From NCBI RefSeq assembly GCF_004010195.1, contig NC_057718.1:79551721-79601025 (forward strand): a DNA stretch of 49,305 nt, read 5' to 3'. Below are positions 5,490-45,560 of the stretch, in pieces. Origin of the DNA: Chiloscyllium plagiosum (Eukaryota). The translations under genes were made by a program, and so were the position numbers. The notes under the pieces were generated by a model. The model saw only the letters and a list, made by a program, of their open reading frames with translations. It did no database searches and was not told the origin of the DNA. Every line of letters begins with the position of its first letter. Positions within the stretch are counted from its first letter, which is position 1.

Positions 5490-6485
5490 TATAGAAGCAC
5501 AGAAACTAGGGGTTGAAGTTTAACCTATTGAACCCACTCTACCATTCAACATGATCATAGCTGACCCTCCACCTCAATGCCATTCTCCTACTCTGCCCCT
5601 CCATCCATATTCCTTGATGTCTTTAGCCTCTAGAAACATATTCAGTGACTTGGCTGCCACACCCTTCTATGGCAGAGAATTCCACAGCTTCCCCATTTTA
5701 TGAATAAAGATTTTTTTCTAAAGCTTAGTTCAAAAATGCCTATCCCCTATCCTGAGATTATGGCCCTTTGTCTTGGGGCCTCCAGCCAGGGAAAACACGA
5801 TCCCTGCATTAGTCTGTTCAGTCCTGTCAGAATTTGATATGTTTCATGGTGATCCATTAGACGTAGGAACAGAAGGAGGCCATTCAGCCCACTGAGTCTG
5901 CTCTGCCATTCAATGAAATATTGGCAGATCTGATTATCTTCGAATCCATTTTCCTACCTCCCTTCTCATTTTCCAAATTTCAGTGAATACAGCCTCAGTT
6001 GATCCAATCATTTCCCCTATTACAAACCTACCATCTCAGGAATCAGCCTGATGAATTTTTGCTGAGCTTTCTCCATGTCAAGTTTGTCTTTTTTTAACTA
6101 AGGAGAACAAAACACAATACTCCAGGTACCAAAGCCCTGTACAGTTGCAATAAGACTTTCTTACTGCTGTACTCACACACTCTTGCAATGAAGGCTAACA
6201 TAGCTGATGAAGAAGCAGCACTTTGAAAGCTAGTGATTCCAAATAAACCTATTGGACTATAACCTGGTGTTGTGTGATTTTTAACTGTGACCAACATCAG
6301 CACCTCCAAAACATAACATTAGCCTTCCTAATTGCTTCCTGCATCTGAATGAGCAGTATACAAAAGTACTTAGGTCCCTTTATACACTGACATTTCCAAA
6401 TCATCATTATTAAATAATATTCCAACATTTTGTTTTCATACCAAAGTGGACAACTTTGCACTTATCCACATTATACTTCATTGGC
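5490..6485 (-). mobile_element. Cluster of older CR1-clade LINE fragments
   Basis: Several CR1-like 3' ends on the minus strand; ORF 6094-6309 contains MLAFIAR..EYSSKKVLLQLYRALV, a CR1 ORF2 motif. Confidence 0.7.
6204..6309 (+). mobile_element. Penelope pseudo-LTR mini-element (family A) with decayed hammerhead motif
   Basis: Starts at CTGATGA (6204), GAAAGCTAGTG at 6225-6235, then sequence matching the 3' end of the Penelope element at 8163-8249; AACATA duplicated at 6197-6202 and 6310-6315. Confidence 0.8.
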
Positions 6486-6496
6486 CGTGGATAAAG

Positions 6497-6873
6497 AATG
6501 TGCTCTTAGACAAATTTGATGAAAGTTCACTTTGAGTATCCTTAGTGTATCTGAAATAGATTAGATTCCCTACAGTGTGGAAACAGGCCCTTCAGCCCAA
6601 CAAGTCCACACTGACCGTCCGAAGAGTAACCCACGCAGACCCATTTCCCTCTGACTAATGCACCTAACACTATGGGCAATTTAGCATGGCTAATTCACCT
6701 GGCCTGCACATATTTTGGATTGTGGGAGGAAACCGGAGAATCCAGAGAAAACCCACGCAGACATGGGGAGAATGTGCAAACTCCACACAGGCAGTCGCCC
6801 GAGGCTGGAATCAAACCCGGGTCCCTGGCGCTGTGAGGCAGCAGTGCTAACCACTGAGCCACCGTGCTGCCCC
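6497..6873 (-). mobile_element. HE1-type V-SINE, full length
   Basis: Complete tRNA head, V-domain and tail on the minus strand; several CpGs retained. Confidence 0.93.
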
Positions 6874-7157
6874 TGTAGTAGGTAAAGGTAGATCATATCG
6901 AGATTTTATTTCCAAAGGAAATTGAAAAATAAATGCTGCTGCACGGTTTGTTTGAAATCCATGGTGGATGGTACAGTACTTCTGGCATTTTATGGCTATT
7001 CAGAATGATTTAAACCTAGCTCCATCTTCCTATTTCAGCCCTCCCTGGGACTCCTGGCTGACAGAAAAGGATGAAAGTCAGGGATATTGGGCTCCATGAA
7101 TGCCTGACTCAGTGAGAGGCAGTGCTACTGTCAAAGGCTATGCTTTTATAAACAAGA

Positions 7158-7368
7158 TTCGGAGATGCCGGTGTTGGACTGGGGTGTACAAAGTTAAAAA
7201 TCACACAACACCAGGTTATAGTCCAACAGGTTTAATTGGAAGCACACTAGCGTTCGGAGCGACACTCCTTCATCTCACCTGATGAAGGAGCGTCGCTCCG
7301 AAAGCTAATGTGCTTCCAATTAAACCTATTGGACTATAACCTGGTGTTGTGTCATTTCTAACTTTGTA
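7158..7368. mobile_element. Head-to-head inverted pair of family A Penelope pseudo-LTRs
   Basis: About 7187-7274 is the reverse complement of about 7281-7368; TAAACAAGA duplicated at 7149-7157 and 7367-7375. Confidence 0.88.
7276..7310 (+). ncRNA. Minimal type I hammerhead ribozyme motif (one stem I mismatch)
   Basis: CAC-CUGAUGA-A-GGAGC GUC GCUCC-GAAA-GC-UA-AUG. Confidence 0.7.
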
Positions 7369-7379
7369 AACAAGAAGTG

Positions 7380-8160
7380 ATTGGTGATTTGCCAGCCTCT
7401 GAAGAGTTATTTCAAGCCAAAAATGGTTGTGGATGCAAATTAGGTGGCTTTCTGGAGAGATTCCCACAGAATATCATACCTAAATATACAAAGGAACTTC
7501 AAACAATACTCCTTCAAAGGGGAAAGAGACAAGTCAAAACTGATTGCACTATGATCTCTGGTGACTATAAAGATAATGAGAGGTGATGACCTCCACCCAC
7601 CCCTTCTCAACAGCAAGCCATGCCCTGAAGATAATATCCCACAGTGCCAACACATTTTGTGATTTTCCCTTTGAAGAATTCACAAGACAGGTGTTAAAAA
7701 GCCACCTTCAATACTGTTGGAAAGTGCAAGTGAGACTGAATGTCCTCATGTGTATTACTTGGGCTCAAGTGTTAGCATGCTGTGAAGGCTACAGTTGGAG
7801 GAGTATCCCCTAGTCAACTCCTGCATTGCATGTAAAGACTTTCTCCTACTCTGAGTCCGAGAAATCAGCTATTGAGCAGCCAGAGAAAAGGAAACAGGAC
7901 AACAAAAGGACTTTATCTCACCTTGACTGTCTTTCAATTTAAGACTGATCCATATTTCTTCATTAACTTTTATCTTTTTGGTCTTGCCTTTCTTTTTAAT
8001 CTTGTGCATGTGTTGTGTTTCTAATTTTTCCTGTGCTTAGTAATGAATAAACTCACTCTTTGTTAATGCAAGAAAGCCTGATTAGATTATATCCCTTTAA
8101 AACATACGTTAATTTGGGTCTTGGACAAAAGTATTCACAAGGGAAGCAAGCTATTTTTAA
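7380..8160 (+). repeat. Unclassified dispersed repeat, possibly LTR-like
   Basis: 8047-8100 (AATAAACTCACTCTTTGTTAATGCAAGAAAGCCTGATTA) recurs at about 37469-37525; boundaries uncertain. Confidence 0.4.
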
Positions 8161-8214
8161 ATGTTAAAAATCACACAACACCAGGTTATAGTCCAACAGG
8201 TTTAATTGGAAGCA

Positions 8215-8249
8215 CACTAGCTTTCGGAGCGACGCTCCTTCATCAGGTG
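8215..8249 (-). ncRNA. Minimal type I hammerhead ribozyme motif in the Penelope 3' pseudo-LTR
   Basis: Minus strand reads CAC-CUGAUGA-A-GGAGC GUC GCUCC-GAAA-GC-UA-GUG: intact core, stem I CAC/GUG, 5-bp stem II, palindromic AGCU stem III, CUA cleavage triplet. Confidence 0.8.
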
Positions 8250-8679
8250 ATAGTGGAGGGCTCAATCCTAACACACAGAATTTATAGCAAAAATTTACAG
8301 TGTGATGTAACTAAAAGTATACATTGAAAAATTGATTGTCTGTTAAGCCTTTCATCTGTTAGAACACCGTGATAGTTTGACTTCTTTCATGTGTAAAACA
8401 CAAAACCTTTTTTTTAAAAAGTTGCATTCTCAGGTTAGCTGTTAACAATGGTGATAGCTAGACAATAGGTTGAAGGTGTTGGTCCCTGTGTTCTCTGTCT
8501 ATGCCATGATGTTTAGATTGATTCTAATCTAAAAAGTGAGATAACAGAGTTTCACATGAATTCATGCAGTTTTTGAGCTCAGAGTTCTACATGAATGCAT
8601 GCGGTTTTTGAGCAAAGTACAATGTAACCCTGCAAGTACAAATTCACCCCACAAAATATATCCGTGCATGTGGGTCTTT

Positions 8680-8935: not shown

Positions 8936-8984
8936 TAGTGCAATGGTGGTCACCTGTAATGTGACATGAACCCAAGGTCCCGGT

Positions 8985-11139
8985 TGAGTACCGAACTTAG
9001 CTATCAGCCTCTGCTTGGCCAGTTTTTGCTGCTGCCTGTCCCGAAGTCCACCTTGGGGGATGGTCACCCGAAGGTCTGAGGCTGAATGTCCTGGACCACT
9101 GAAGTGTTCCCCAACTGGGAGGGAACACTCCTGTCTGTTGATTGTTGTGCAGTGCCCATTCATCCGTTGTCGTAGCCTTTGCTCGGTTTCCCCAATGTAC
9201 CATGCCTCCGGGCATCTTGCCTGCAATGTATAAGATAAACAACATTGGCTGAGTCACATGAGTACCTGCCATGTATAACGTGGGAGGTGTCCACACGCGT
9301 AATGGTGGTACCTATGTCCACACTCTGACATGTCTTGCAGCGCCTACCGTGACAGGGTTGTATGGAGTTGTCCTGAGAGCCGGGCAGCTTGCTACGAACA
9401 ATAATCTGTTTGAGGTTTGGCAGTTGTTTAAAGGCAAGTAGTGTAGGTGTGGGGAAGGTCTTGGTGAGGTGCTCATCCTCATTGATAATGTGTTGCAGGT
9501 CACGAGGAACATGGCGTAATTTTTCAGCTCCTGGGAAATACTGAACAATGAAGGGTACCTTGTCGGTTGCAGCACGTGTCTGTCTCCTGAGGAGGTCATT
9601 ACGGTTCCTTGCTGTGGCATGTCGGAACTGGCGGTCGATGAGTTGGGCATTGTACCCCATTCTTGCGAGGGCATCCCTGAGTACTTCCAGGTGTCCGTCA
9701 TGTTCGTCCTCATCTGAGCAGATCCGGTGTATGTGTAGGGCTTGTCCATAGGGGATGGCTGTTTTAATATGTTTTGGGTGGAAGCTGGAGAAGTGTAGCA
9801 TTATGAGGTTGTCTGTGGGTTTGCGGTAGAGTGTGATGCTGAGGTGTCCATCCTTGATGGAGATGCATGTGTCCAAGAATGAGTCAGATAGTAGAGAGTA
9901 GTCCATTGTGAGTTTGATGGTGGGATGGAACTTGATAGTATCACTGTGTAGTTTTATCAGTGACTCCTCGCCATGGGCCCAGAGGAAGAAAATGTCGTCA
10001 ATATACCTTGTGTATAATGTTGGTTGGAGGTCCTGTGTAGAGAAGAAGTCTAGTTCGAACCTGTGCATAAAGATGTTGGCATATTGGGGTGCAAATTTTG
10101 TCCCCATAGCTGTTCCATGTGTCTGGATGAAGAACTGGTTGTCAAAGGTGAAGACGTTGTGATCGAGGATAAAGTGGATGAGTTGTAGGACAATGTTTGG
10201 AGTTTGGCAGTTGTTGGTGTTGAGTACTGAGGCTGTTGTCGCGATGCCGTCATTGTGGGGGATGCTGGTGTAGAGTGCTGAAATGTCCATTGTGACGAGG
10301 AATGTTTCCGGTATGACTGGTCCGTGGGTGCTGAGATTCTGTAAGAAATCCGTAGCATTGCGACAGAAGCTGGGGATCCCCTGTGCATTAAGTTTCAAGA
10401 TGCCTTCAACATAACCAGAGAGATTCTCACACAGGGTCCCATTGCCTGATACGATGGGATGTCCTGGTGTGTTGGCTTTGTGTATCTTTGGAAGGCAGTA
10501 GAAGTCGCCTACATGAGAAGTACGTGGGATGAGGGAACGTAGGGAACTCTGAAGGACTGGATCCAAAGTTCTGATCAGTGTGTTTAATTCACGGGTGTGT
10601 TCTTTGGTTGGATCAGCTGGTAGTTGCCTGTAGTGTTCCTGGTTGTTCAGTTGTCGTTAAACTTCCTTGCAGTAATCTGTTCTATTCTGAATGACATTGG
10701 CTCCTCCTTTATCTGCTGGTTTGATGACAATGTTGTGATTGGTTTTGAGAGCCTGGATGGCATTGTGTTGTGAACAGGTAATGTTTTGCTCTACCTTTGG
10801 GTACGGCTGATGAATCTGGCATTTATATATTTACTGACGGCAGCGGCCCTCCGGTGGGGTCCAGGTTGACACCTTCTTTGGTCGCTCCTCTACAGATTCC
10901 TGTGATGACTGTACCAGTTCATCAGTGGGCTCATTGGGATCACTGCTGGCATCTTGAAAGAATTCCCGGAGTCTCATTCGTCTGATGAACTCCTCCGTGT
11001 CTGCTGCCAGAACCAACGGGTCCATTTTGGTGGTGGGGCAGAAGTTGAGACCCCTTCTCAGGACTTCAATCTCTTCCGGTCGAAGGGTGTGGTCTGATAA
11101 GTTGATAATAGACTTCCCCGCAGTGATAATGTTATCCAC
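8985..11139 (-). pseudogene. Disrupted Penelope ORF: reverse transcriptase and GIY-YIG endonuclease
   Basis: FYCLPKIHK, MDISALYTSI, GTAMGTKFAP, RYIDD, YRKPT, PCHGRRCKTC, VVYLIHC / CPEAWYIGET..LRQRMNGH. Frameshifts near 10800-10830 and 9220, and an in-frame stop near 10658. Confidence 0.92.
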
Positions 11140-11199
11140 TGTGGTGCCAGGGTGGGCTTTGCTATAGCTGGTGAGAATGCCAAGTTTCTCCAGTTTTGA

Positions 11200-11935
11200 A
11201 AAAGTTGGTAAATGGACTATAATGTGGACAAATTTGAAATTGTTCAGTTTGAAAGGAAGAATTATTTAAATGGAGAGAAACTACAGAAAGCCTCAACACA
11301 AAGTGACTTGGGAGTACATGTGCACAAAACACAAAAAACTAGCACACAGGTGAAGCAGGTAATCAGGAAGCCTAATGGCCCTTACTTCGAGAGGATTGGA
11401 ATATAAGAATAGAAAGTCTGGCTGCAACTACACAAAGTGCTGGTGAGACCACATCTGGAGTGCTGTGAGTTTTGCATTGGAGACAGTTCAGAGAAGGTTC
11501 ACTTGGATGATCATTGGTATCCATGTACTTTGAGCCAAGATTAAACAGGTTGAGACTCTACTCATTGGAATTTAGAAGGATAAGAGGTGATCTCACTGAA
11601 ACACGTAGAAATCTTAAAAGCATTGACAGTGTGAATGCTAAGAGGATGTTTAGCCTCATTGAAGAGTCGAAGACCAGAGGGCGTAGTTTCAGAATGAAGG
11701 GGTGCCAATTTAAGACTGAGATGAGGAGAATTTCTACTCTCACAGGGTTGTGAAGTTTTGGAACTTCTTGCTACAGAGATCTGTGGGGCAGAGTCCTTGT
11801 GTATATTAAGGCTGAGGTAGACATATTCTCAATCAACAAGGAAATCAAGGATGATGGGAAAATGCAGGAAAGTGGAAGCTAAATCAGCTGGTTCAGGGCG
11901 CCAAGCGGCTGACTCCTGTTCCTATTTCTTATGGA
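11200..11935 (+). mobile_element. CR1-clade LINE 3' fragment
   Basis: ORFs 11212-11406 and 11514-11753 give RLNRLRLYSLEFRRIRGDL.E and ESKTRG; tail GGCTGACTCCTGTTCCTATTTCTTATG. Confidence 0.85.
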
Positions 11936-15509: not shown

Positions 15510-15855
15510 AGTAATGAAAGGTGTGGATAGAGTTGATGGTAGTTGTTTTTTCCCTAAGATGGTGAATATCAAGACTAGGGGGCACATTTTTAAGGTGAGA
15601 CAAGAGCAAGCTAAAAAAGACGTAAGAGGCAAATCTTTTACACAGAAGGTGGATCGCATGTGGAATGAATGTCCTGAGAAAGTGGTGGATGTGGGTACAA
15701 TTGCAATGTTAAAAGACTTTGGATGGATACATGAATAGGAAAGGTTAGGAGGGATATGAGCCAGGAGCAGGCAGGTGGGACTAGTTTAGTTTGGGATTAT
15801 GTTCAGCATGGACTAGTTGGACCGAAGAGTCTGTTTCAGTGCTGTATGACTCTTT
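15510..15855 (+). mobile_element. CR1-clade LINE 3' end
   Basis: ORF 15514-15738 MKGVDRV..FFP..KTRGHIFKVR; tail GTGCTGTATGACTCT. Confidence 0.85.
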
Positions 15856-16560
15856 ACATCTTTATTGTCTGGCATGCAAAGTTCAAAGTGTAAGCATGTT
15901 GTTGTAGCGAGGAAGTAAATAGAGTCTCGGAAACATAGGAACTAGAATGGGAATTATTACTGTCTACTCTTTTCCAGATCCTCAGGTCAGGTTCAGAATC
16001 AGCAGAGATTTACAAAAATCTTGCCCACCTTCTTTGGGCAGATGGCAAGAAGAGACTAAAAAAAAGGAGGGAAAGAACATGAATAAAATGTTTCACCTTC
16101 AAACAAGAAGATGTGATTACAGCGGATTCCACTACTAAAATCATATGATGAATTCACTCTTTTGGGAGAAATCATTTTATTTGCAAATAATTAAAGAGAA
16201 ACATCACTCAATTCAATACAAATTCAAATGCAAAGTGTCATCTTTATATCTTTCAATATCATCAATATTATATATTTGCAATTCCATTGAAGTGTTGTAT
16301 TCCAAAAAAAGGAGACTAATAGTTCGTTTCATTGAGATCAGAAAGCTGACAACTGGGAACTTCCAACCTGACAACATTAAAATTAGACACATGAAACAGA
16401 AAGCTAGATGATAAGCATGGGAAGGTGACAGGAGGCTGAAAGCAAGGACCCAATTTAAAGGGATAATAATTGATGTATTGTAATGCAATGTCAAGGAGAA
16501 CCGACTAGCGGGAAAGGGAAAGGTCAGATGACTGTGGGCACCCGATGCTCCTTTGAGCTG

Positions 16561-16752
16561 TGACTTGGAGGTGCCAGTGTTGGACTGGGGTGGACAAACT
16601 TAAAAAGCACACAGCACCAGGTTCATTTGGAAGCACTAGTTTTTGGAGCGCCGTTGTGTCAACCACCTGATGATGGAATGGTGCTCAGAAAGCTAGTGCT
16701 TCCAAATAAACTTGTTGGACTATAACCTGGTGTTGTGTGATTTTTAACTTTT
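16561..16752. mobile_element. Decayed head-to-head pair of family A pseudo-LTRs
   Basis: Left arm on minus with the terminal extension; right arm on plus with CAC-CTGATGA (16664-16673) and GAAAGCTAGTG (16688-16698); flanks TCCTTTGAGCTG / TCCCTTGAACTG (10/12). Confidence 0.8.
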
Positions 16753-20480: not shown

Positions 20481-21170
20481 CGGTGGTTAGCACTGCTGCC
20501 TCACAGCACCAGGGAACCAAGTTTGATTCCAGCCTTGGGCGACTGTCTGTGTGGAGTTTGCACAGTCTCCCTGTGCCTGCGTGGGTTTACTCCAGGTGCT
20601 CCGGTTTCCTCCACAATCCAAAGATGTATAGGTTATGTAAATTGCCCACAGTGTTCAGGGATGTGTAGGTTATGTGAATTGCCCACAGTGTTCAGGGATG
20701 TGTAGGTTAGGTGCATTAGATTAGATTACTTACAGTGTGGAAACAGGCCCTTCGGCCCAACAAGTCCACACCGACCCTCTGAAGTGCTACCCACCCAGAC
20801 CCATTCCCCTATATTTACCCCTTCACCTAACAGTACAGGCAATTTAGCATGGCGAATTCAGCTAACCTGCACATTTTTTTTGGACTGTGGGAGGAAACCA
20901 GAGCACCCGGAGGAAACCCACGCAGACACGGGGAGAATGTGCAAACTCCACACAATCAGTCACCTGAGTTGGGAATTGAACCCGGGTCTCTGGCGCTGTG
21001 AGGCAGCAGTGCTAACCACTGTGCCAACGTGCCTTTACCCATTAGTCAGTGGTAAAGGTAGAGTAATAGGTTAGGGGAATGGTTTTGGGTGGGATACTCT
21101 TCAGAGGGTCTGTGTGGACTTGTTGGGCCGAAGGACCTGTTTCTAGACTGTAGGGATTCTATTCTATTCT
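20481..21170 (+). mobile_element. HE1-type V-SINE (outer), split by a second SINE
   Basis: Head and V-domain at 20481-20719, tail at 21040-21170; internal 37-bp tandem duplication at 20623-20696. Confidence 0.88.
20716..21033 (-). mobile_element. HE1-type V-SINE (inner, nested)
   Basis: Full SINE on the minus strand; CATTAG duplicated at 20714-20719 and 21040-21045. Confidence 0.9.
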
Positions 21171-21354: not shown

Positions 21355-21453
21355 ACAAAAGCAGAAGTAGCTGGTGAAACTCAGCAGGTCTGGCAACATC
21401 AGTGGAGAGAAAGCAGAGCCAACATTTTGAGTTCAGTGACCCTTCTTCAGAAC
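21355..21453 (-). mobile_element. Pseudo-LTR-type mini-element (family C) with decayed hammerhead motif
   Basis: Minus strand reads GTT-CTGAAGA-AGGGTCACTGAACTC-AAAA-TG-TT, interpretable as CpG-decayed CGAAACGTT; same family as 29083-29312. Confidence 0.7.
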
Positions 21454-21854
21454 ATAGGTTTCTTTGTTTTATTTTAATGTAGATTACAGATCTGGAGTGA
21501 AGTTAAGGTTCTTGGTCCTCTTGTCGTCTTGCTGTTGATGCTGAGCACCAGTGGTTAAAGTGATGTACCAGAGGTCTGCATGCATTTTCAACAGTCATTG
21601 AGCAATCTACTGGACTTTGCTTTCCTGTCCATGGAGACAGTCAGACACATGCATTCCAGATACAGCATGGGACTGGTAACATTAGTGCACACAAATGTTT
21701 GATCCACTTTACCCATGGTCCAAACAAAGCTGCCTGCTGCTCCTGTCTCTGCGCTGACATCGTGGTGGCATCTTCTGCCTGCAGATGAATAGATGCTAGA
21801 TCTTCAGCCATCCTCTGGAGTTTCTTCCTTCACTAGCTTTGGAGATGTGTCAGT

Positions 21855-22027
21855 AACATTTAAAAGGCATTTAAATGGGTTTATGAATAGGAAGGGTTTG
21901 GAGGGATATGGGCTGGGTGCTGGCAGGTGGGACTAGATTGGGTTGGGATATGTGGTCGGCATGGACGGGTTGGACCAAAGGGTCTATTTCCATGCTGTAC
22001 ATCTCCATGACTCTATGACTCTATGAT
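21855..22027 (+). mobile_element. CR1-clade LINE extreme 3' end
   Basis: TTTAAAAGGCATTT...GGACCAAAGGGTCTATTTCCATGCTGTACATCTCCATGACTCTATGACTCTATGA. Confidence 0.85.
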
Positions 22028-22900: not shown

Positions 22901-23860
22901 AGCAGCAAACTAAGGACAGCTCCTGGCTTGAAGCATTTGAAGTAGTGCACAAAGGGATTTGAACAAAGTATCTGCAGCATGAATGCCAAGGAGGCCCAGC
23001 ATTGGCAAGCACTTCTGCATTTGCTGGATGCAAGATTGTGTAAGAGCATGGCCAAAGAGGCAGGTTGCAAACTCAATTAAGTGAGTAATGGTGATCTGCA
23101 AGAGAAAGGTCACCAAGACTCAAAAAGGAAAACCTTGCAGGAAAGTACTTGAAATTGAGACTTAGCCAAAAATGGGAAAGGTCAGCTCAAATATTCTGAC
23201 CTGATCACATAATTGCTACCCTGTAATATCACAATCATATGTTCAGAGGTATTGTCACACAGGTTACTAGAAGAACCACTTATATTTATAAAGCACCTTT
23301 AGTATATTAAAATGCACCAAGGAGCTAAAGTAGGGCACTTGCATGCCAACTTTAATGAGCAATGTAAGAGATATTGGGCAGACCAAAGCTTCGTCAAAGG
23401 AGCTCACTTTTATTAAGCAACTTAAGAAAGCAGAGACGGAAAGCTGGATGTTGTGTATTTCTGTCAATATGTTGGGACTGTTGCTTTGAGAGACTGATCA
23501 CGTCATGTCTGCCACAATATTCCAGTGAAACCCAACAGGTTCATTTCCCACCCAGGCACTTTAAAATCTTCAAGACACAACATTAACTTCAATAACTTCA
23601 GAACATGAACATGAACACTCTCATCTATTTTTGTTTAATCCTACCCCACCGCTCCTGTGTTTTCTTTTCATCACTTTGCTCTGAGCAAGCCAACCTATTT
23701 TTAACTATCCACAGTTATTATTAGCAACTATTTTGCTTCAAGATCGTTCATTTATTAGCACTAATAATTCATTTGTCTTTTGCTGAGGGCATCTTACATC
23801 CACTCACTCCTCCTCTCCCTTTAACAACAACATTTGTGTTATAATTTTTTAGCTCTTTTC

Positions 23861-24020
23861 AGTTCTGAATTAAACTCACCGGGCTCAAAATGTTCGCTCT
23901 GTTTCTCACTCCATGGCTGCTGTCTGACCTGCTGTGTTTCTCCAATACTTTAAGCTTTCTTTTGCTGTCAGTACATGGTTTGTGTCTGGACTTCGGGCAT
24001 CTTGAACTGCAATTTTTTTC
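23861..24020 (+). mobile_element. Decayed family C-like pseudo-LTR mini-element
   Basis: GTTCTGAA...CTCAAAATGTT.GCTCTGTTTCTC...GCTGTCTGACCTGCTGTGTTTCTCCA...GCATCTT; similar to 21355-21453 and 29230-29312. Confidence 0.6.
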
Positions 24021-26580: not shown

Positions 26581-27970
26581 TTTCCAAGACATAAAAACTA
26601 ATTAAAATTGTATTAAGAATGATGAAAAGATCAAGAGAATAATTCATGAAAAGTTATGAGGTAAATATCAATTTAAATCATGGCTGTAACAGTTGAATGA
26701 TTTCTGAAATTGTATTTCCACATCACTCAGACTTAGATGCACCAGTGCCTTTTATCCCAATGCTGATTTCTAGAATTATGTGATGCAGTATTGTGGGTAA
26801 TATTAATACTCACTAACTCCTCTATCTGATACCAAAGTCTGCAGTTCAGAATATTGAGACCATTTTCTGCCGACAAACACTATTGAGTGTTTTTTATGCA
26901 ACATTGCTTGTAATGTCAATTGCTTTGATCAAAATGAGATCTAATCAGCTTGAAAAAATTGCACAGATGCTCATTAAGTAAGCGTTCAAACTCGAGATAG
27001 AGATGTGTGCTCTCAGACAAGGCAAACAAGAGGTCAAGAAGCAACTGTTTCTTAGTCTCTATCTGCCACAGTTTATTAGTCTTCTTGTCTTCCAGACATT
27101 GGTGATTAAAGAGAAACATCTCTTATCTTAGCTAACACAAGTAACATATGACAGCTTGACACCTCACAGAAGTCATTTCAGTACTACATTCCATTTACTT
27201 ATTGATAACAAATTCTTGACTGAAGATATATGAATACTCATGGAATCTTTTTCAAAAAGATGATTTCATGAATATATTTATGTTAATGATAATGCCTTTT
27301 AAAGAACATTTCACATAGTTTTGAAATAGAAGTTAGCACAATGATCTAGCTGGTGATCAATCCTGCATTTTCAACCGTGGCTGTGATAAAACTTGAAGGG
27401 AGTTAGAAGTTTTAATTTTAAAAACTGCAAGTGCTGTTTATATTGATTTGGAAAAATATATTTCATGCTTTAACCTATCCAATACATAGCCATGAGGCAC
27501 AGTAGACCATTAATGACAATGCCAGAATTATATTCAATCACAATCTGTAACCTCACAGCTGAGCATATGCTTCATTCCACCATCATCATCAAGTCAGGAG
27601 CTCAAACTGGGTTCAATTCAGGGCATGCCAGGAACAGCATCAGTCATTCCTAAAAGTGAGATGCCAACCCGGTAAAACTGTAATACAGGACTACTAACAT
27701 GCCAAATGGTGAAACCAACATGAGGTAGACAGGACATTTCAATCCAACAACCCTCAAATCAGATCTAAGTTCTTCAGCCCTGCCCTCTCCAATCACGGAT
27801 TGTGGTGGACAATTATACCTGTAACAGGAGGAGAAGGCTCCACAAATATCCCTATCCTCAATGATGTGAGAGCCCAACACATCAGTGCGAAAGGGAAGAT
27901 TGACGCATTTGTTTTTATCTTAAACCATAAAGGCTGAGTGAATGATCCAATGTGGTCTCTTCCTGAGGTT

Positions 27971-28221
27971 AGGAGAAAGTGAAAATTGCAGATGCTGGAG
28001 ATCAGAGTCAAAAGCACAGCAGGTCAGGCAGCATCCAAGGAGCAGGAGAGTCACATTCCTGATGAAGGGATTATGCCTGAAACGTCGACTTTCCTGCTCC
28101 TCGGATGCTGCCTGACCTGCTGTGCTTTTCTAGTGCCACACGTTTGATTCTGATCTCCAGCATCTGCAATCTTCACTTTCTCCTAACTTCAGGAAGAGAC
28201 CAAATTGGATCCAGCACCACA
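27971..28221. mobile_element. Head-to-head pseudo-LTR pair (family B) with hammerhead motif and inverted copy of target DNA
   Basis: Arms at 27971-28052 and 28087-28184; CTGATGA at 28059, GAAACGTC at 28079-28086; 14-bp direct repeat CTCTTCCTGAGGTT at 27957-27970 and 28222-28235. Confidence 0.88.
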
Positions 28222-28290
28222 CTCTTCCTGAGGTTCTCTACATTGCTGGTCTTGAACCAATTTAATTCACTTTACAATAACAATGCAGAG

Positions 28291-28525
28291 TCAAGATTAG
28301 AGTGGTGCTGGAAAAGTGGTGCAGGTCAGGCAGCATCTGAGGAGCAGTAAATCACTTTCCAGGCAAAAGCCCTTCATCAGGAATGATGCTCATTCCTAAT
28401 GAAGGGCTTTTGCCCGAAACATCAATTTTCCTGCTCCTTGCTTGCTGCCTGACCTGCTGTGCTTTTCCAGCACAACTTTAATCTTGACTCTAATCTCCAG
28501 CATCTGCAGTACCCACCTCCGCCTG
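28291..28525. mobile_element. Head-to-head pseudo-LTR pair (family B), each arm with a mutated hammerhead motif
   Basis: Plus arm CTAATGA-AGGGC TTTT GCCC-GAAAC-ATC (28396-28423); minus arm CTGATGA-AGGGCTTTTGCCTG-GAAAG; exact 14-bp duplication ATAACAATGCAGAG at 28277-28290 and 28526-28539. Confidence 0.88.
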
Positions 28526-28764: not shown

Positions 28765-29023
28765 ACAAAAAGGACTTAAGGGGCAACTTTTTCACACAGA
28801 GGTGGTGCATGAATGGAATAAACTGCCAGACAAAGTGGTGGAGGCTGGTACAATTGCAAAACTTCAAAGGCAACTGGATGGGTACATGAAAAGGAAAGAT
28901 TTAAACAGATATGAGCCAAATGCTGACAAATGGGACTAAATTAATTAAGATATCTGTTTGTCATAGATGAGTTGGACTACTGGGTTTATTTCTGTGCTGT
29001 ACATCTCTATGTCTCTGACTCTA
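28765..29023 (+). mobile_element. CR1-clade LINE 3' end
   Basis: KKDLRGNFFTQR in ORF 28701-28889; tail GTGCTGTACATCTCTATGTCTCTGACTCTA. Confidence 0.8.
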
Positions 29024-29082: not shown

Positions 29083-29312
29083 CAAAAAAAAAGAACTGCA
29101 GATGCTGGAAATCAGAAGCAAAAGCATAAACAGAAATTGCTGGAAATATTCAACAGGTCTGGCAGCATCTGTGGAGAGAAATCAGAGTTAACGCTTTGGG
29201 GGAGTCCAGTGATCCTTCTTCAGAACACTTCAGAAACATTAACTGTGCTTTCTCTCCACAGAAACTGCCAGACCTGCTGCATTTTCCCAGCAAATTCTGT
29301 TTTGTTTTTGCT
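29083..29312. mobile_element. Head-to-head pseudo-LTR pair (family C)
   Basis: Left arm is the reverse complement of the right arm; minus arm starts GTT-CTGAAGA-AGGATC; flanks TCTCATTACAGCCTT (29065-29079) and TCTCATTACTGCCTT (29313-29327). Confidence 0.85.
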
Positions 29313-30144
29313 TCTCATTACTGCCTTGGCCCGAGCACAAACAAAAGAGTAGAACTCCAGAAGTAGGTGATAACGATTACCTGTGATATCAAGGTCACAT
29401 TTGACAGAAAATAGCATCTAGCATTGATTGATCAGTAGGGGATATCAAGTTTTTATGGGGAAAAAACAGGAAAGTAGATGTAAGGATGTCAGATCAGCCA
29501 TGACCATATTCAATGGTGCAGCAGGCGGAAAAGGCGGAATGGCATACACCTTTCTATTTCTTCTGGTCTTATGGTGTAAGAGAACTGGGAAAACTCAAGT
29601 CAATGGTAATTGGGGAGAAACTCTCTACCGTTTGATCCTGTCCACAATATTATGATCCTATCTGATGTTACTACTGAACAATCCTGGCCAAGATGACGGC
29701 ATCCAAGGCAGTGGGCTTTCTGCAACAGAATCAAATGGTTGCTGAACCCCTGCCTGAGTTTCTCTGGTGTCCGAAGGAAAGGTGGTGGGTGGGGTTGTGG
29801 TGTTGGTGAGCCTGTGCCCGTGGGTTCACGGAGAACCAGGAACTTTGCTGCTGATCTTACTGTAGTCTGTGGGATCCTGAGGAGGATAGATGTTTGCATT
29901 CGCTGAGGGGGCCATTGTGTAGAATAAGGTGATAGTGGTTTGAAACCAACTTGAGAAGGAATTTATTCCAAGGCAAGTGCATGTGTAGGATTGTCAACCT
30001 CAGAGTGTTATGAAGAGGAAGGAGGTAGATAGATCTCTTAAATATCAAGGAGGCAAAGAGCTGGCACAAAAGAGGAGTTGAGGACTGTGCACATGAACCA
30101 TGAGTTTATAGGATGGCAGGGCAAGGGAGATGAAATTTATTGTT

Positions 30145-37693: not shown

Positions 37694-37984
37694 GTTTGAA
37701 AAGCAAACAATACGGAAGGGATATCAGTTATCTCCCTCTGCTTCTGAGGGTCTGAAAAATACCAGCCTTGAAATACCTCTGCTTGTAATGTTCTTTTTAA
37801 TGTTACGCATGTCCTTCATGGAAGGAAATTTTCCATCTTCATTAGGTTTGGCCGACATGTCACCTCAGACCCACAGTAATGTGGTTGACTCTCAACTGCC
37901 TTCTGAAATGGCCGAGAAAGCTATTCGATTTCATCAATTGCTACAAAGTCTCAAATAAATCAATTTGGATAAATCACCTCCTTT

Positions 37985-38495
37985 TGGGAAGAATGTTGAG
38001 AAACCTGAAAGGGTTCAGAAAAGATTTACAAGGATGTTGCCAGGGTTGGAGGGTTGGAGTTGTTGGGAGAGACTGAATAGGCTGGGGCTGTTTTCCCTGG
38101 AGCATTGGAAGCTGAGGAGTAACCTTATAGCAGTTTATAAAATCATGAGGGGCATGGATAGGGTAAATAGGCAAGGTCTTTTCTTTGGGATGGAGGAATA
38201 CAGAACTAGAGGGCATAGGTTTAGGATGAGAGGGGAAAGATTTAAAAGCGAACTAGGCGGCAACATTTTTACGCAAAGTGTGGTGTGTGTATGGACTAAG
38301 CTGCTAGAGGAAATGGTGGAGGCTGGTAAAATTACAACATTTAAAAGGCATCTAGCTAGGTATATGAATAGGAAGGGTTTAGAGGTATATGGGCCAAGTG
38401 CTGGCAAATGGGACTAGATTAATTTAGGATATCTGGTCAGCATGGACAAGTTGGACCAAAGGGTCTATTTCTGTGCTATACATCGCTATGACTCT
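37985..38495 (+). mobile_element. CR1-clade LINE 3' end (HER1-like) nested in the long LINE
   Basis: ORF 37965-38417 ERVQKRFTRMLPGL...RLNRLGLFSLE...YKIMRG...RTRGH...FFTQ-like motif. Confidence 0.9.
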
Positions 38496-38548: not shown

Positions 38549-38638
38549 AGAAAAAAGTGAGGACTGCAGATGCTGGAGTACCAGAGTTGAAAAATGTGGT
38601 GCTGGAAAAACATAGCAGGCCAGGCAACATCCAAGGAA
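38549..38638 (-). mobile_element. Single family B pseudo-LTR arm, hammerhead part absent
   Basis: Matches the family B arms; exact 14-bp duplication CAGAATTAGCCCTG at 38535-38548 and 38639-38652. Confidence 0.85.
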
Positions 38639-39599
38639 CAGAATTAGCCCTGTCAACCCTGCAAAGTTTTCCTTACTATCATCTGAGGGCTAATGCCAAA
38701 TTTGAGACAGCTGTCTCACAGACCAGTCAAGCAACAACCTGGCGTAGTCATACTCACCGAATCATAATTTATAGACAATGCCCCAGTTACCACCATCATC
38801 ATCCCTGGATATGTCCTGCCCCACTGGCAGGACAGACTTAGCAGAGGTGGTGGCACAGTGTATACAGTTGAGAGAGAGTTGACCTGGGAGTCCTCAGCAT
38901 TGACTCTGACCCCATGAAGTCTTGTGGCTTCAGATTAAACATGGGCAAGGAAACCTCCTGATGATTACCACATACCGTCCTCCCTCAGCTGATGAATCTG
39001 TACTCTTCCATATTGAACTACACTTAGAGGATGTATTGAGGATGGCAAGGGCATGAGACTTTGGGGATGCCAATGTCTGCCACCATGAGTAACTCAGCAG
39101 CAATGCTACTGATCAAGCTGGTCGGGTCCTAAAGAATATAGCTGCTACACTGGGTCTGAGGCAGGTGTTGAAGAAACCAACAAGGAAAAGCATACTTGAC
39201 CTCATCCTTATCAATCTGCTGGCTGTAAATGCATCTGTCCATGACAGTATAGATAAGAGTTACCATCGCACAGCCCTTGTGGAGACAAAGTCCCACCTTC
39301 ACATTGAGAATAAGCTCCATCATATGTGCTATCACGGTGCTAATTGGGACAGACTTCAAACAGACCTAGTAACTCATCGGCATCTATGAGGTACTGTGGG
39401 CCATCTACAGCAGCAGAATTGTACTCCAGCACAAGCTGTAACCTCATGGCCTGGCCTACAATTACAATCAAGCCAGGGGATCAGTTCTGGTTCAATGGAC
39501 ACTGCAGGAGGCCATGCCAAGAGCAGCACCAGGCATAGCAGCAAAAAAAGGTGTCAACATAGTGAAGTTACCAGACAGGATTACTTGCATGCAAAACAG

Positions 39600-39716
39600 A
39601 GTCCTGAAGAAGGGTTACACCTGAAACATTGATTTCTCCAACCCCTGATGCTGCCTGGCTTGTCATGTTCTTTACTTGTCTACCTTGGATTCCAGCATCT
39701 GCAGTTTTGTTTGTGT
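39600..39716 (+). mobile_element. Pseudo-LTR-type mini-element (family D) starting at a hammerhead motif
   Basis: AGTC-CTGAAGA-AGGGT TAC ACCT-GAAA-CA-TT-GATT (39600-39634), then GATGCTGCCTGGCTTG...TTCCAGCATCTGCAGTTTT; interrupts the LINE. Confidence 0.75.
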
Positions 39717-41785
39717 CAGCGTAAGTAGCAAGTGACAGACAGAGCTAAGCAATCCCAGTGGATCAGATCTAAGCTCTGCAGTCTTGCTACATTCAGTCGT
39801 GAATGGTGGTTGATAATTAAACAACTTATTGGAGGAGGAAGGTCAACAAATATCCCCTTTTCAATGATGAAAAGGCCCAGCATGTCAGTGGAAAAGATTA
39901 GGCTGAAGCATTTGCAGCAATCTTCAGCTAGAAATGTTGAGTTGGTGATGCATCTCAGCCTCCTACAGTGGTCTCCAGCATTCCAAATATCAGTCTTCAG
40001 CCAATTTGATTCATTCCATGTGATATCAAGAAATAACTGAACACACTGGATACTGCAGAGGTTATGGGCCCTGACTACATTCTGGAAATAATATTGAAGA
40101 CTTGTGCTCTAGGACTTGCTGCTTCTCTAGCCAAGTTTTTCTATTACAGTTACAACACTGGCACCTACCCCGACAATGTGGAAAATTGTTCAGGGATACT
40201 GCATACATAAAAAAGAGGACAAGTGTACTTGCAATCATTAGTAAAGTGATGGAAGGGTTCATCAACAGAGCTATCAAGCAGCACCTGCTCAGCAACTACC
40301 TGCTCAGTGGCACCCAGTTTGGGTTCTGTCAGGCCACTCAGCTCCTGACCTCATTGGTTCAACCATGGAAAAAAGAGCTGAATTCCAGAGGTGAGATGAG
40401 AGTAACAGCCCTTGACATCAAGGCTGCATTTGACTGAATGTGGCATCAGGAAGCCCTGGCAAACTGGAATCAATGGGTATCAGGGACAAACACTCTGCTG
40501 GTTGGAGTCATACCTGGCACACAGAAAGATGGTCGTGCTTGTTGGAGGTCAGTCATCTCAGCTCCGGGACATCTCTGCAGGAGTCCCTCAGCAGAGTGTC
40601 CTAGGTCCAACTATCTTCAGCTGCTTCATCAATGTCCTTCCCTCTATTATAAGGTCAGAAGTGGAGATGTCACTGATGATCGTACAATGTTTATCACAGT
40701 TCACAACTCCTCAGACACTGAAGCAGTCCATGTTCGAATGCAACAAGATCAGACAATATCCAGACTTGGGCTGACAATGGTAAGTAACATGCACACCTGA
40801 TAAATGCAAGTCTATGACCATCGTCAATAAGAGACAATATAACCACCATCCCTTTATAGTTAATGGTGTTACTATCACTGAATCCCCCAATACCAACATC
40901 CTGGGGGTTATCAATGACCAGAACCTCAACTGGACTCATCACATAAACACAGTGACTAGAAGTGTAGGTCGGAGGTTGGGAATACTGTGGCAAGTAACTC
41001 AGTTCCTTACTTCCCAAAGCCTGTCCAGCATCTATATGGCACAAGTCAAGAGTCTGATGGAATACTCCCCACTTGCCTGGATGAGTATAGCTCCAATAAT
41101 GCTCAAGAAGCTTGACACAATCCAGGACAAAGTAGCCTACTTGATTTGCTACCGCATGTGCAAGCATCCATTCCCTCCACCACCAACCTTCATTAGCAGC
41201 AGTGTGTACTAGCTACAAAATGAACTGCAGAAATTCACCAAAGATTTTAGGTAGCACCTTCCATGACCACTTCCATTAGAAGGACAAGGGCAGCAGAATC
41301 ATGGGAACATCGCCACCTTCAAGATCTCCCCCCCCAAAGCCATTCATCACTCTGATTTGGAAATAATATCGCCGTTCCTTTATGTCACTGGGTCACAATC
41401 CTGGAATTTCTTTCCTAGGGCATTGTGAGTTAACCTACAGCACATGGACTGCAGCAGTTCAAGAAAGCAGCTCACCATCACTTTCTCAAGGGCAACTAGG
41501 GACGGGCAATAAATGCTGACCAGCCAGTGATGCCAACATCCCACAAATGAATAAAAAATTCAAACTTGTTCAGACATCCTATTGGGGCAATGGCAATACA
41601 AAATGACAACCACTCCTGATGTAGCATGGCATGCTATGCTACGGGTGGACAGGAGGTTAAGGAGGGGAAGGCTAAAATATTTGGTGTTGGCAAGTTAGAG
41701 GGAGATCTGTTTCGAAAATGATCAGATCTAGCTTTCATCACGACATTGGTACCCCGAACAGAAAACATTTACACCCTACTACATA

Positions 41786-41873
41786 AAAATGAAATATTAC
41801 TGTTATATCTACATTAACAAAATGAAATATCACTATTATATCTACCTATAAAGCATGAAATATTATTGCTATA
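41786..41873. repeat. Degenerate minisatellite, about 33 bp x 2.7
   Basis: Three copies of an ATGAAATATTACTGTTATA-like unit. Confidence 0.75.
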
Positions 41874-42586: not shown

Positions 42587-43639
42587 GTCAGGCTCCTTGG
42601 TGGCTATCAATAGCCAGAAATGAATTTTCTTTGTTACTTAACTGCCACAGATCGGGCAAATTTATTGTGATCATCACACAGTGTGAGACTTCGAATTTAT
42701 TTGTTTTCTTTTGAGAGGGGAAAGTCTGAGAAAAGCTGAAAATACATTATGAAATGGTGACATTACATGATTCCTACAATGCAGTAAATTTTTCTGTAAC
42801 TCAGCAATCAAGATTATGGCATTTTCACACAAATCAGATTTTATACCCATCATCTAGAAAAGCCTCTTCTACTTTAATTTCCAGTCCTTGCCCTTTTTTT
42901 GCCAGGCATTATTTAGTGGACCTTAGTTATTCTGTGTCCAAAGAAATTCTGGCATTTCAATGAAGAATCATGAAGAAACTTCTCCCCCATGATGCTCCAA
43001 ATCGATGGCCTGTTTACAAATTCATTTACATTCATATAATCAGTCTTAACTGTCAATCCTACTGGTGTGAAAACAGAGCAAAGGTAACAACAGTTGCTCT
43101 TTTCTAGTTACAGTCCAGATTTATCATGAACTGGGGAGAATTTTACCCTGTGATTCCCCAGCATTATATCAATCCTCAAAGTACTTTATGCTAATGTTTA
43201 CCATTCAACATGTCAAAACTTATTTTGATTTCACAACTTTAAATTTAAAGTACCATTCCACATATGTTATAGGTTTCTAGCAATCTTAACATTATGAGCT
43301 TGATCTACAGTGAGTATTTTTTAATTGTATGGTAGTTCCTAAGGGACAATGAATTCCTAGTGTTTGTACCAAATTCCTTCAGGAATGTTTAAGGCAGATG
43401 TTAACCAGTATAAAATAAACATAGTAATCCTTGCAGGAACTTGGTTGATTCTTATAATTTAAGATGGTCCCTTGCAAAATCTTTCCTCTAATGTCAAGTC
43501 AGAGAAGTGAGCCAAGATTTAATACGAGACATGGGGTGTGGTGGTGAGGGGGAGGTTCATGGGGAAAGGGAGGGGGTTGCAAGAGAATGGAAGACTTTGA
43601 GGAAAGAGTCGGAAGCAAGGGTGTGACTTTTCCATCCCA

Positions 43640-43935
43640 ATGATAAGGGACGGAACTAGTTGCCATTTGGAGAAGGATCAATAACCAAAGGACACAGATT
43701 TGTGATAAAAGCCTGAAGGTTTGAAGGGATTTAAAGTAGTTTTTTTTTAACACCAGTTGTGGGTATCTGGAAAAGTGGTAGAGGGAGGAGCCATCAAAGC
43801 ATCTAAAAAGTATATAAGGCTATGTATGGGCCAAGATTTGGAAGATGGGACTAAGTTGATAAGTTTTTGATTCCTGGCATAGACACAATGGGTCAAAGAG
43901 CCTTTTTCCTGTGTTGTAAACTCCATAACTCTGTC
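43640..43935 (+). mobile_element. Old CR1-clade LINE 3' end
   Basis: ACCAAAGGACACAGATTT...GGGTCAAAGAGCCTTTTTCCTGTGTTGTAAACTCCATAACTCT. Confidence 0.65.
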
Positions 43936-44339
43936 CAAACAATGGAAAGCCAAAAGATCATGAAGCAGGAATTTTTTTTTGCACTGGGATCAGGTCATTA
44001 CAAACATGAAAGGAAAGTAAGTATTTACACAGTATAAACCCTATGATTTATATTGGGATGAGGAGTGTTTTGTTTGACTGCTCCTTCTTCCCACAAGCCT
44101 TCCTTCTCCCCAAAACATGTTTTTTTTTCTCCAGAGAGGGTGTTTTCTTACTTCCAGCTGCCCTCCCTTACCATTTTGACCTGCTGGTGAAGGTCCAGAC
44201 ATAACTGTTCGAGCTCCCCTACTCTGACACCTTTCATCACCCATGGCACCTGCTGCTGGCTGTTCCATTACATACTTCCCTCCTTGAAACCTGCCATCCT
44301 GACAACTACACATAGCACATGAATGAAATGAAACACTTA

Positions 44340-45250
44340 GCAAGCATTGTGAATATTCCAATTGCTGACATAATGATGGAGGAAAGGTTAACAATGATTG
44401 AGCTCAAGATGTTAAGTTTTTGGATGCTGCCCTGATGAATGAATAGCTATCATCATGTCCTGGTGTTATAATGATTTGCCTTCAATGACTCCAGCCACTG
44501 GAGAGGGTTTTAGCCAGGTTCCTTTGTTTTCCACTCAGTTGAATGTTACCTCGGTGTCATTCTCATCTCATATTTGGAAGCTAGCCTCCAGGAGATTGTA
44601 ATGAGGTCATCCAGTTGGACCTCATAGAATATGTGTTCCCTGATCGGGACTGTTAATCTGAAATTGGGAGCCCTGGCTGACAGACAAAAACAGAAGTGTC
44701 AGACCTTCTGACAGTCTGAGCTGGTTCTGTGAAAGTTGAATCAGTGTCAAGGACTTTCCACATGTAAATAAAGGCTAACTTGGTGACTGGATACCAGCCT
44801 CTCTGGAGTTATTTCAAGCCATGTATGGTTCAAGCTTTAACATAGTCTGGAGTCAAGTGGTCCTAACTGAAACTAAACTGAGTATTGGTGAACTTGGTAG
44901 CACTGTTGATGACTCCTTTTTTGCTGTGCTGATGATTCAGAGTAGGTTGGTAGGATGGCAATTGGCTATAGTGAATTTATTGTTCTTGTGGGCAGGATAA
45001 ATATGGGCAGTTTTCCACACAGTCAGTGAGATGCAACTGTTGCAGCTGTAATTGAGCTTGACTACAGGAATACTGCCAATCAGTACCACATCTGGGATGC
45101 AGGGTCTGCAGTCTTGCTGTGTTCAATGCACTCATCTGTTTCATGATATCACATCAAGTGAATCAAATTGGCTGAATTCTGGCATCTGTGTTGACAAGGA
45201 TCTCAGGAGGCCAAGAAAACTCATCCACTCAGCACATCTGCTTGTAGACA
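44340..45250 (-). mobile_element. Old LINE fragments, 37860-41558 family
   Basis: Reverse-complement similarity to about 39940-40690 (CATAATGATGGAGGAAAGGTTAA, GGGCAGTTTTCCACA, TTTCATGATATCACATCAAGTGAATCAAATTGGCTGAA). Confidence 0.7.
44597..44816 (+). mobile_element. Short solo LTR (about 220 bp)
   Basis: TGTAAT...ATTTCA imperfect inverted termini, AATAAA at 44767-44772, interrupts the LINE; no clear TSD. Confidence 0.6.
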
Positions 45251-45404
45251 GTAATGTATACTTCAGTTTTACCTTTTGCATTCAAAACAAACATGGATTA
45301 TTTAGTTTGTCCATCATATTGTACATTTTACCAGAGTCCTACATATTTGATTAAAGTTAAACAATTTGCATTTGCCTAAATTGGAAATAATAAGCTAAAT
45401 AAGT

Positions 45405-45560
45405 AAAATACTTTGGATGCTAAAATTCTGAAATAGAACAGAAAATATTGGAAATATTCATCAAAGTCATGACACATCTGTGGAGATGCTTTTTTAAGTT
45501 GGATGGCCTTTTGCCAGGTCTGATGACAGGTCATTAACCTGAAAGGCTAACTCTGATTTT
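45405..45560. mobile_element. Very decayed family C-like inverted pseudo-LTR pair with hammerhead motif
   Basis: CTGATGA-C-AGGT CATTA ACCT-GAAA-GG-CT-AAC at 45520-45551; the left part resembles the minus arm at 29100-29180. Confidence 0.6.

Follow-up and report, generated by a model that had tools for sequence, protein, structure and literature searches.

Copies of the hammerhead motif CUGANGA...GAAA are scattered through the window, the whole 49,305-nucleotide stretch of Chiloscyllium plagiosum DNA analysed here, which raises the question of whether they mark separate, self-propagating RNA families or Penelope-like element (PLE) ends. A preliminary description had read them as about four families of short, non-autonomous, retrozyme-like elements mobilised by PLE proteins. 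The observation is real, although most copies of the motif are worn, and the retrozyme reading is unsupported.

Hammerhead motifs in the window

All 11 positions named in the preliminary description carry the motif or a decayed form of it, and together with the core 23865(+), which was not on that list, they form our set of 12 cores. Recurrence was confirmed by 10 loose matches to CUGANGA-N9-22-GAAA, against 3.15±1.75 (maximum 6) in 40 block-wise dinucleotide shuffles; four other loose matches, 28540(+), 48478(-), 27777(-) and 15985(-), lie outside all family profiles and were discounted as chance. Intactness did not hold up to the same degree, as only six of the 12 cores are without mismatch at C3–A9, G12–A15.1, U16.1 and H17 and the others have one to three changes. 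Two sites, 8246(-) and 16667(+), satisfied a strict descriptor of the minimal hammerhead that demanded an intact core, at least 3 bp in each of stems I and II and pairing of 15.2/16.2, against none in each of 12 shuffles; relaxing it to one core mismatch added no further site in the window. An Rfam scan of the window gave no hammerhead at E ≤ 1, its seven matches, all below gathering, being hairpin look-alikes to miRNA models. ARAGORN reported 0 genes in the window, and a 29-nt family A pattern had 0 matches in metagenome contigs and 0 in viral contigs.

The sequences previously quoted for stems I, II and III are present in the window, as is the extra A after A9 (10/12 cores). Over the 12 cores, 75 of 96 stem cells are paired (G-U counted as a pair), six cores keep a Watson-Crick palindrome, AGCU or ACGU, and two combine stems I and II, the extra base and a palindromic stem III, the register of 28380 and 29223 being uncertain in these core and stem counts. 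Pairs were counted with C3 and G12 as anchors, since MAFFT set families A and B in the wrong register. For five pieces folded as monomers, the z-scores were weak (-0.04 to -1.87). Families A, B and C are distinct, and 39604 and the 45410–45566 site are distant relatives of B and C (held-out profile matches, E 4e-4 to 5e-3), which makes the earlier count of about four families a fair one. Pair swaps between families keep pairing at I.2 (A-U vs U-A), I.3 (C-G vs G-C), II.3 (A-U vs G-C) and III.2 (G-C vs C-G). The stems had been described as covarying; with only about three independent lineages, these differences are not a statistical covariation result.

A coding PLE ends in a family A hammerhead

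The copy at 8246, whose position at the end of a protein-coding PLE had gone unlisted, closes an element with a broken open reading frame (Table 1), to which residues 20–642 of P0001 align by tblastn at 10797–8956 (68%). Linkage of a PLE-type reverse transcriptase (RT) to a GIY-YIG domain at the C terminus within a single ORF was found for family A, and families C–E have no associated ORF within the window. In the family B piece beside the second RT remnant, an ATG at 47887 opens 39 codons that span the junction with the remnant.

Table 1. Penelope-like coding remnants and short end copies (stubs) in the window.
Position	Strand	Feature	Core	Tail	Target duplication	Further evidence
8956..11265	-	Broken PLE ORF, RT then C-terminal GIY-YIG; stops and frameshift				RVT_1 E 2.6e-8; GIY-YIG part vs P0032 E 2e-17
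8163..8256	-	Family A end (3' pseudo-LTR) belonging to coding PLE	C3 at 8246
6204..6308	+	Family A single stub	begins at C3 (stem I 5' strand lost)	partly deleted	weak
7159..7367	.	Family A head-to-head stub	7279 (right arm)	~30 nt, left arm; right arm tailless	13 bp, 1 mismatch
16566..16750	.	Family A head-to-head stub	16667	left arm only	not above chance
27944..28235	.	Family B head-to-head stub	28059	both arms	14 bp	left arm begins at predicted cut
28288..28520	.	Family B head-to-head stub	decayed, one per strand (28380-, 28396+)	right arm only	14 bp, exact
38552..38643	-	Family B single stub	none	present	14 bp, exact
47874..48829	+	Family B end piece immediately 5' of a second PLE RT remnant, itself very decayed (place of a 5' pseudo-LTR)				tblastn E 1e-10
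21356..21454	-	Family C single stub	21450, decayed
23856..23960	+	Family C single stub	23865, decayed
29088..29316	.	Family C head-to-head stub	29223(-), decayed	left arm only	15 bp, 1 mismatch
39598..39712	+	B/C-related single stub	39604, palindrome lost
45410..45566	.	Old C-related head-to-head stub	45520		none found	arms weakly matched

Downstream of the predicted cut (8218/8217), the family A end carries AUUAAA at 8206–8201, poly(A) sites at 8189 and 8186, as located from reads of family copies, and then a GU-rich stretch; the element's DNA ends at 8163 and has no tail there. Family A arms match this 3' end at 80/82, 84/88, 79/89, 73/82 and 50/56 positions (up to 98%), and the short family A copies contain nothing beyond it, which tells against separate retrozyme-like families. 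Other parts of the preliminary description proved right: the motifs are minimal type I hammerheads of the PLE kind, occur in great abundance and are probably mobilised by PLE RT/GIY-YIG proteins.

Polyadenylation and excess of element ends

In one poly(A)-selected RNA run, 983 of 3556 placed reads carried poly(A), 12–15 nt after AUUAAA/AAUAAA. The loose poly(T) ends fell at 8186 (538 reads) and 8189 (445 reads). Because the element lacks an A-run there, and because no poly(T) end is among the six best DNA loose ends listed, we rejected internal oligo-dT priming as their source; A-tailed genomic copies are an unlikely source. From X22, another run on that sample, 0 of 8.3 million reads were placed on the element. 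The family A poly(A) site lies between the predicted ribozyme cut, ~30 bases upstream, and the DNA end, and family A transcripts receive their poly(A) upstream of the tailed and the tailless DNA end alike. We did not find this arrangement in the PLE and hammerhead literature searched. It applies to family A alone; no AAUAAA or AUUAAA follows the core in the arms of families B–E. The captured RNA is uncut, with reads crossing the cut site without a drop, in a poly(A) library that would lose cut products; it also has no read-end pile-up, in a library type unable to show circles. RNA depth is ~670–770 at 8275–8324 against ~1500 over the end, and since it extends into the body, long copies supply a large share of the polyadenylated RNA.

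Summed depth in public DNA contigs reaches 5.0, 7.9 and 13.6 times the body median in the last three full bins, ratios that are not a copy number. Depth is flat over 8350–8640 and jumps only in the last ~90–170 nt. Loose ends carrying the tail occur at 8163 and were found in all three runs with reads. The large excess of ends could also stem from stubs copying stubs.

Architecture of the stubs

We distinguished 19 pieces at 13 sites, with stubs of 90–140 bases that cover 1892 of the window's 49,305 bases (3.8%); most units have no body. Six of the 13 sites, not reported as such before, are head-to-head palindromes with their two cores on opposite strands, and in four of the six the PLE 'tail' is clearly on one arm only. 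All six centres differ, so that the fixed centre expected of dispersed SINE- or MITE-like copies was not seen, a weak comparison given at most two palindromes per family. The hairpin fold of the palindromes is predicted to beat the hammerhead fold by 8–44 kcal/mol. Target duplications of 13–15 bp flank five of the 11 sites tested (score at least 11, vs 0/150 random pairs), and at the other six no duplication rose above chance. Head-to-tail tandems with a core in each unit were found at 0/13 sites in the window; the closest same-strand cores, 337 bp apart, belong to separate insertions.

Of the 18 short arms, about 12 have their start at -10 to +2 relative to C3 and six at +11 to +42, downstream of the 5' edge of the core, and only one begins at the predicted cut site; the 5' boundaries of B–E arms in these counts were set by agreement between copies, with no upstream body as reference. 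Ribozyme cleavage was accordingly rejected as the cause of the stub starts. At 27944..28235 the right arm runs on into 27 nt copied in inverted form from the left target DNA (25 identical), and since the hairpin includes target flank, it was built at the site.

Origin of the stubs

The motifs are probably the minimal hammerheads of PLE pseudo-LTRs, and the short copies dead-end insertion products that the PLE's own RT/GIY-YIG protein made from element RNA, rather than an RNA family that is distinct and propagates itself. In the upstream pseudo-LTR, the element RNA would begin a few bases ahead of the hammerhead, and the RT would start internally ~90–130 nt downstream, putatively at two start sites as in the anole element PAc, and run off the 5' end of the RNA to leave a stub resembling a strong-stop product. 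The head-to-head form might arise if both nicked target ends prime synthesis, or by fold-back copying. Simple two-end priming does not explain the 27944 site, with its tail on both arms and copied target DNA. Since the poly(A) site comes before the presumed RT start sites, the template for the terminal bases would be either the 5' copy or read-through RNA. Cutting by the hammerhead would require a dimer or the help of a protein, and in the stubs the hammerhead would be a passenger.

The stubs might instead be true non-autonomous elements, SINE- or MITE-like PLE parasites with their own internal promoter, re-copied in trans and in part descended from other stubs. Such PLE derivatives exist in Chlamydomonas (PMC8557442), an internal promoter is known from the Penelope pseudo-LTR (PMC2377424), ends exceed bodies several-fold in the DNA contigs, and 17 RNA reads contain one fold-back joint (8206/8242). 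We nevertheless regard this as unlikely, as the stubs have no sequence specific to them, the six centres all differ and RNA depth continues into the body. Some re-mobilisation of stubs may occur. Ordinary random 5' truncation of cDNA initiated on long RNAs at their 3' pseudo-LTR, with the strong hammerhead stem II only stalling the RT or favouring template switching, would fit the stepwise rise in depth toward the end, the scatter of some arm starts and the common 5' truncation of PLE insertions (PMC8557442). It would not lead one to expect flat depth followed by a jump confined to the terminal bases, or a whole core in most arms, and polyadenylated RNA that stops before the DNA end leaves the 3' copy no template unless read through; we consider truncation alone quite improbable.

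Non-LTR retrozymes, in which tandem units are excised by two hammerheads, circularised and re-inserted, are a very improbable source. The type I hammerheads with compensating stems are compatible with them, as are rare short head-to-tail repeats of the last 34–45 nt at low depth in the DNA contigs, and a preprint (bioRxiv 10.64898/2026.07.22.740005) reports pseudo-LTR-derived retrozymes in the one cartilaginous fish sampled. The tandem arrangement is missing at all 13 sites, however, cut sites do not mark both ends of the units, RNA reads pass the cut undiminished, and the motifs are minimal, whereas retrozymes have the canonical type with loop-loop contacts (PMC7229834).

The family A pseudo-LTR might be likened to the R-U5 of a retroviral LTR, with an RNA start, a hammerhead, a working poly(A) signal, and RT start sites with a tail able to pair back over the poly(A) site. 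Stubs would then be strong-stop cDNAs that became integrated, the hammerhead, lying 30 nt ahead of the poly(A) site, would be a switch stripping the tail from element mRNA, and ~10^5 stubs would spread portable poly(A) signals in the shark genome; we put this forward tentatively and with considerable doubt.

Comparison with known systems

Minimal hammerheads and inverted pseudo-LTRs with tails are already published PLE features, the former in truncated PLE ends of many vertebrates, and the observation in the window itself adds little. What is added is the order of signals in family A, which bears on the PLE cycle and on the job of the hammerhead, both left open in PMC4209133 and PMC11167929. 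Having the poly(A) site upstream of the DNA end indicates which RNA can be template and offers a simple test of the hammerhead's effect on element mRNA; with a very high copy number in sharks, junction statistics are easily gathered.

Non-LTR retrozymes (Cervera & De la Peña 2020, PMC7229834; Li et al. 2026, preprint) are defined by circular RNAs and by at least two units in head-to-tail tandem, every one of them bearing a hammerhead. The shark stubs are likewise short, non-coding and pseudo-LTR-related with a type I hammerhead, but lack that tandem order in the window. The metazoan pseudo-LTR hammerheads of Cervera & De la Peña (2014, PMC4209133) number thousands per genome in coelacanth and Xenopus. 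They share with the shark motifs the type I fold with no real helix III, the palindromic 15.2–16.2, an additional base between 9 and 10.1, G10.1-C11.1, the presence of several consensus families in a genome, a mostly solo occurrence in truncated PLEs, and some pairs on opposite strands, 100–700 bp apart; they differ from the shark stems of 3–4 bp (I) and 4–5 bp (II). The accessible text names no sharks and mentions no poly(A) site right after the motif, and its supplements may list shark motifs.

The canonical insertion unit of EN+ PLEs consists of a pseudo-LTR, an adjacent inverted 5'-truncated copy and a 30–40-bp tail (Arkhipova et al. 2013, PMC3846280; Craig et al. 2021, PMC8557442). The shark units agree with it in their head-to-head inverted ends, one-arm tail, target duplications (~9–15 bp) and ORF start inside the pseudo-LTR, but most have no body. 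PAc, a Poseidon element of Anolis carolinensis, has its hammerhead ~100 nt ahead of the two 3' ends by which the tail is defined (Frangieh et al. 2024, PMC11167929). Its ORF starts at the core ATG, whereas the ATG in the family A core meets a stop after 9 codons; the two elements are alike in the order RT then GIY-YIG, an AT-rich target, the dominance of uncut RNA and the lack of a read end at the cut site.

Hammerhead motifs and their integrity

The motif CUGANGA...GAAA, or a decayed form of it, was present at every position named in the preliminary description. The loose motif occurred ten times in the window, against 3.15±1.75 (maximum 6) in 40 shuffles, and a strict minimal-hammerhead descriptor matched two sites (8246-, 16667+; cores are named by their first base) and none in 12 shuffles. 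An Rfam search of the window matched no hammerhead model at E<=1. Twelve cores, the eleven previously named plus 23865+, were compared after anchoring on core positions C3 and G12. The core was intact in six of the 12, and pairing was kept in 75 of 96 stem cells; an extra A and a Watson-Crick palindromic stem III were found in ten and six cores, respectively. From the descriptor, core and stem-pair counts, the family designs are therefore hammerheads, and the majority of individual copies are damaged. The proposed covariation of the stems stands insofar as pairing is kept despite base changes between families, with support amounting to about three lineages.

Penelope-like partners and anatomy of the stubs

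The 8246 hammerhead lies within the final 94 bases of a coding Penelope-like element (PLE) that has a CA-rich 3' region and ends at 8163. The window is shark DNA: among 120 listed of 1594 matches to its reverse transcriptase (RT), the best named relatives were from Chiloscyllium (up to 84-89%, partial alignments), Hemiscyllium (81%), Heptranchias (76%) and Scyliorhinus. The other five family-A arms, short copies of the PLE end, match this end at 80/82, 84/88, 79/89, 73/82 and 50/56 positions and consist of the coding-element end and, where present, a tail (a ~30-nt 3' extension), with no further sequence. A family-B piece at 47874 stands immediately 5' of the remnant of a second, heavily decayed PLE RT (tblastn E 1e-10); its ATG opens 39 codons spanning the junction. 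A PLE ORF start inside the pseudo-LTR (pLTR) is described in PMC3846280. No coding partner of family C or of the 39604 and 45410-45566 sites (D and E) was found within the window, and common downstream sequence links all three to family B (held-out profiles).

The window holds 19 arms at 13 sites (1892 bases), of which two adjoin PLE ORFs, five are single and six are head-to-head, the 45410 site weakly. The tail is on one arm only in four palindromes (7159, 16566, 28288, 29088) and on both arms at 27944. Target duplications of 13-15 bp, exceeding all 150 random pairs, were found at 5 of 11 sites tested, with none above random pairs at the other six. All six palindrome centres differ (arm starts are tabulated, approximate for families B-E); about 12 of 18 short arms begin within -10 to +2 of C3, and one of 18 exactly at the predicted hammerhead cut. 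At 27944, target flank forms part of the hairpin (27 bases, 25 of them identical), which was therefore built at the insertion site. Within 27944-28235 the second arm continues into a reverse copy of the 27 nt of target flank and 10 nt of element-like sequence, after which comes the target duplication; this arrangement is the mark of a template switch made as the element inserted.

Folding predictions give a long hairpin for RNA that reads across a palindrome, and forcing the hammerhead stems in such transcripts would cost 43.9, 39.4, 29.7 and 8.5 kcal/mol; the predicted cost for the linear 8246 end is 5.5 kcal/mol. In each of families A, B and C, base pairing is possible between the tail and a segment 3' of the core (z-scores weak), and in family A this segment includes the poly(A) site. 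Examples from the three families (7159-7230, 28438-28520, 29090-29175) have the segment 15-45 nt after the cut. The pairing sequences of A and of B/C are unrelated; common to three families, the modelled pairing is possibly an RT-binding stem.

The window also carries a SINE-like repeat (~300 nt, tRNA-like head, at least 10 copies) and LINE remnants, which we take to be CR1/L2-type; one contains an RVT_1 match (E 0.0013) at 40409-40771. In family C, motifs directly 3' of the predicted cut (29195-29170 and 21420-21395, both minus strand) resemble a branch point, a pyrimidine tract and CAG then ATG, presumably a possible 3' splice site. The Penelope intron of D. virilis ends at the hammerhead (PMC4209133).

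Repeats of the window and arm starts of the palindromes
Feature	Position	Strand
SINE-like repeat	1573, 4065, 12082, 20463, 30139, 33710, 47565	+
SINE-like repeat	220-537, 6543-6873, 20703-21033	-
LINE remnants	37959-38495, 40075-41212, 4941-5254, 15706-15861, 21855-22019, 28802-29016	
Palindrome arm starts relative to C3 (about)	+2/-4, +11/-8, +28/-5, -6/-5, -4/+20, +42/-5	

Public DNA and RNA reads over the family-A end

Reads of four public runs were compared with 7900-8640 at 85% likeness. Across 8350-8640 the summed depth of public DNA contigs (X2) stayed level, with a median of 0.54 million; it reached 5.0x this median at 8225-8249, 7.9x at 8200-8224 and 13.6x at 8175-8199. On the unique flank it was mostly 6-70, with values up to 480 in four bins. 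Family-A ends far outnumber PLE bodies, summed contig depth not being copy number; were single-copy depth a few tens, the ends would number on the order of 10^5. Each of the three runs that yielded reads had tail sequence attached at 8163. Among 40 listed of 129 variants, those near the core were at 8232 and 8233 in loop II and at 8250 and 8252 outside stem I.

A poly(A) single-cell RNA run (X21, about 2% sampled) placed 3556 reads on 7900-8640; because these were mostly 90-95% alike and none lay on the unique flank of the 8246 locus, they come from other family copies. Poly(T) loose ends at 8186 (538 reads) and 8189 (445), together 983 poly(A) junction reads, demonstrate in this one run that element-sense family-A RNA receives its poly(A) tail 12-15 nt 3' of AUUAAA (8206-8201), immediately 5' of a GU-rich stretch. 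AUUAAA and AAUAAA hexamers and a GU-rich stretch are the usual Pol II polyadenylation signals. The signal region (8206-8186, minus strand) lies between the predicted hammerhead cut and the DNA end of the element. A common variant at 8205 (about one third of DNA depth) turns AUUAAA into AAUAAA; one or the other is present in 5 of 6 family-A arms, and both are absent after the core from all B-E arms. Depth showed no drop at the predicted cut (1535 vs 1503), nor was a pile-up of read ends there among the ends listed; the captured RNA is therefore uncut. A cut 3' piece would measure about 30 nt plus tail and would probably escape capture, and uncut reads are thus no measure of cleavage. In X22, a run of the same sample, 0 of 8.3 million reads matched 7900-8640, a contrast probably due to differing library types. 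A literature search thin on subscription papers and supplements found no paper describing PLE polyadenylation.

Origin of the stubs

The PLE origin of family A, the two 3' ends, the target duplications, the site-built hairpin in one case and the location of the poly(A) site 5' of the DNA ends are demonstrated. The Penelope transcript begins in the upstream pLTR at an internal promoter (PMC2377424). In the anole, each target strand is nicked and extended by the PAc protein, which begins reverse transcription at two internal sites that define the tail; it uses uncut RNA as template, and hammerhead cleavage occurs only with protein present (PMC11167929). Stubs of 90-130 nt would result if copying began at two such sites within the 5' pLTR and continued as far as the 5' end of the RNA, and palindromes may arise by two-end priming or fold-back; self-priming has been proposed for PLEs (PMC3846280).

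We consider it likely that the stubs are PLE by-products carrying passenger hammerheads. Their re-copying from other stubs is unlikely, and plain truncation with RT stalling, whose outcome overlaps that expected of by-products, is distinctly improbable as a separate account. The preliminary description had favoured retrozyme-like RNAs, a reading we abandon as highly improbable: retrozymes require tandem units (PMC7229834; bioRxiv 10.64898/2026.07.22.740005), whereas no two cores of the window form a head-to-tail unit.

Comparison with known systems

PMC4209133 defines minimal hammerheads with an extra base, a palindromic 15.2-16.2 pair and compensating families, and describes solo copies from truncated PLEs, opposite-strand pairs, and cleavage that was low and confined to dimers. 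PLE insertions with an inverted copy and a tail are described in PMC8557442 and PMC3846280. No paper describing shark PLE hammerheads was found by a search outside which lay Dfam, Repbase, several supplements and most subscription papers. The motifs of the window are real and abundant, and of a kind already known, the minimal hammerheads of PLEs.
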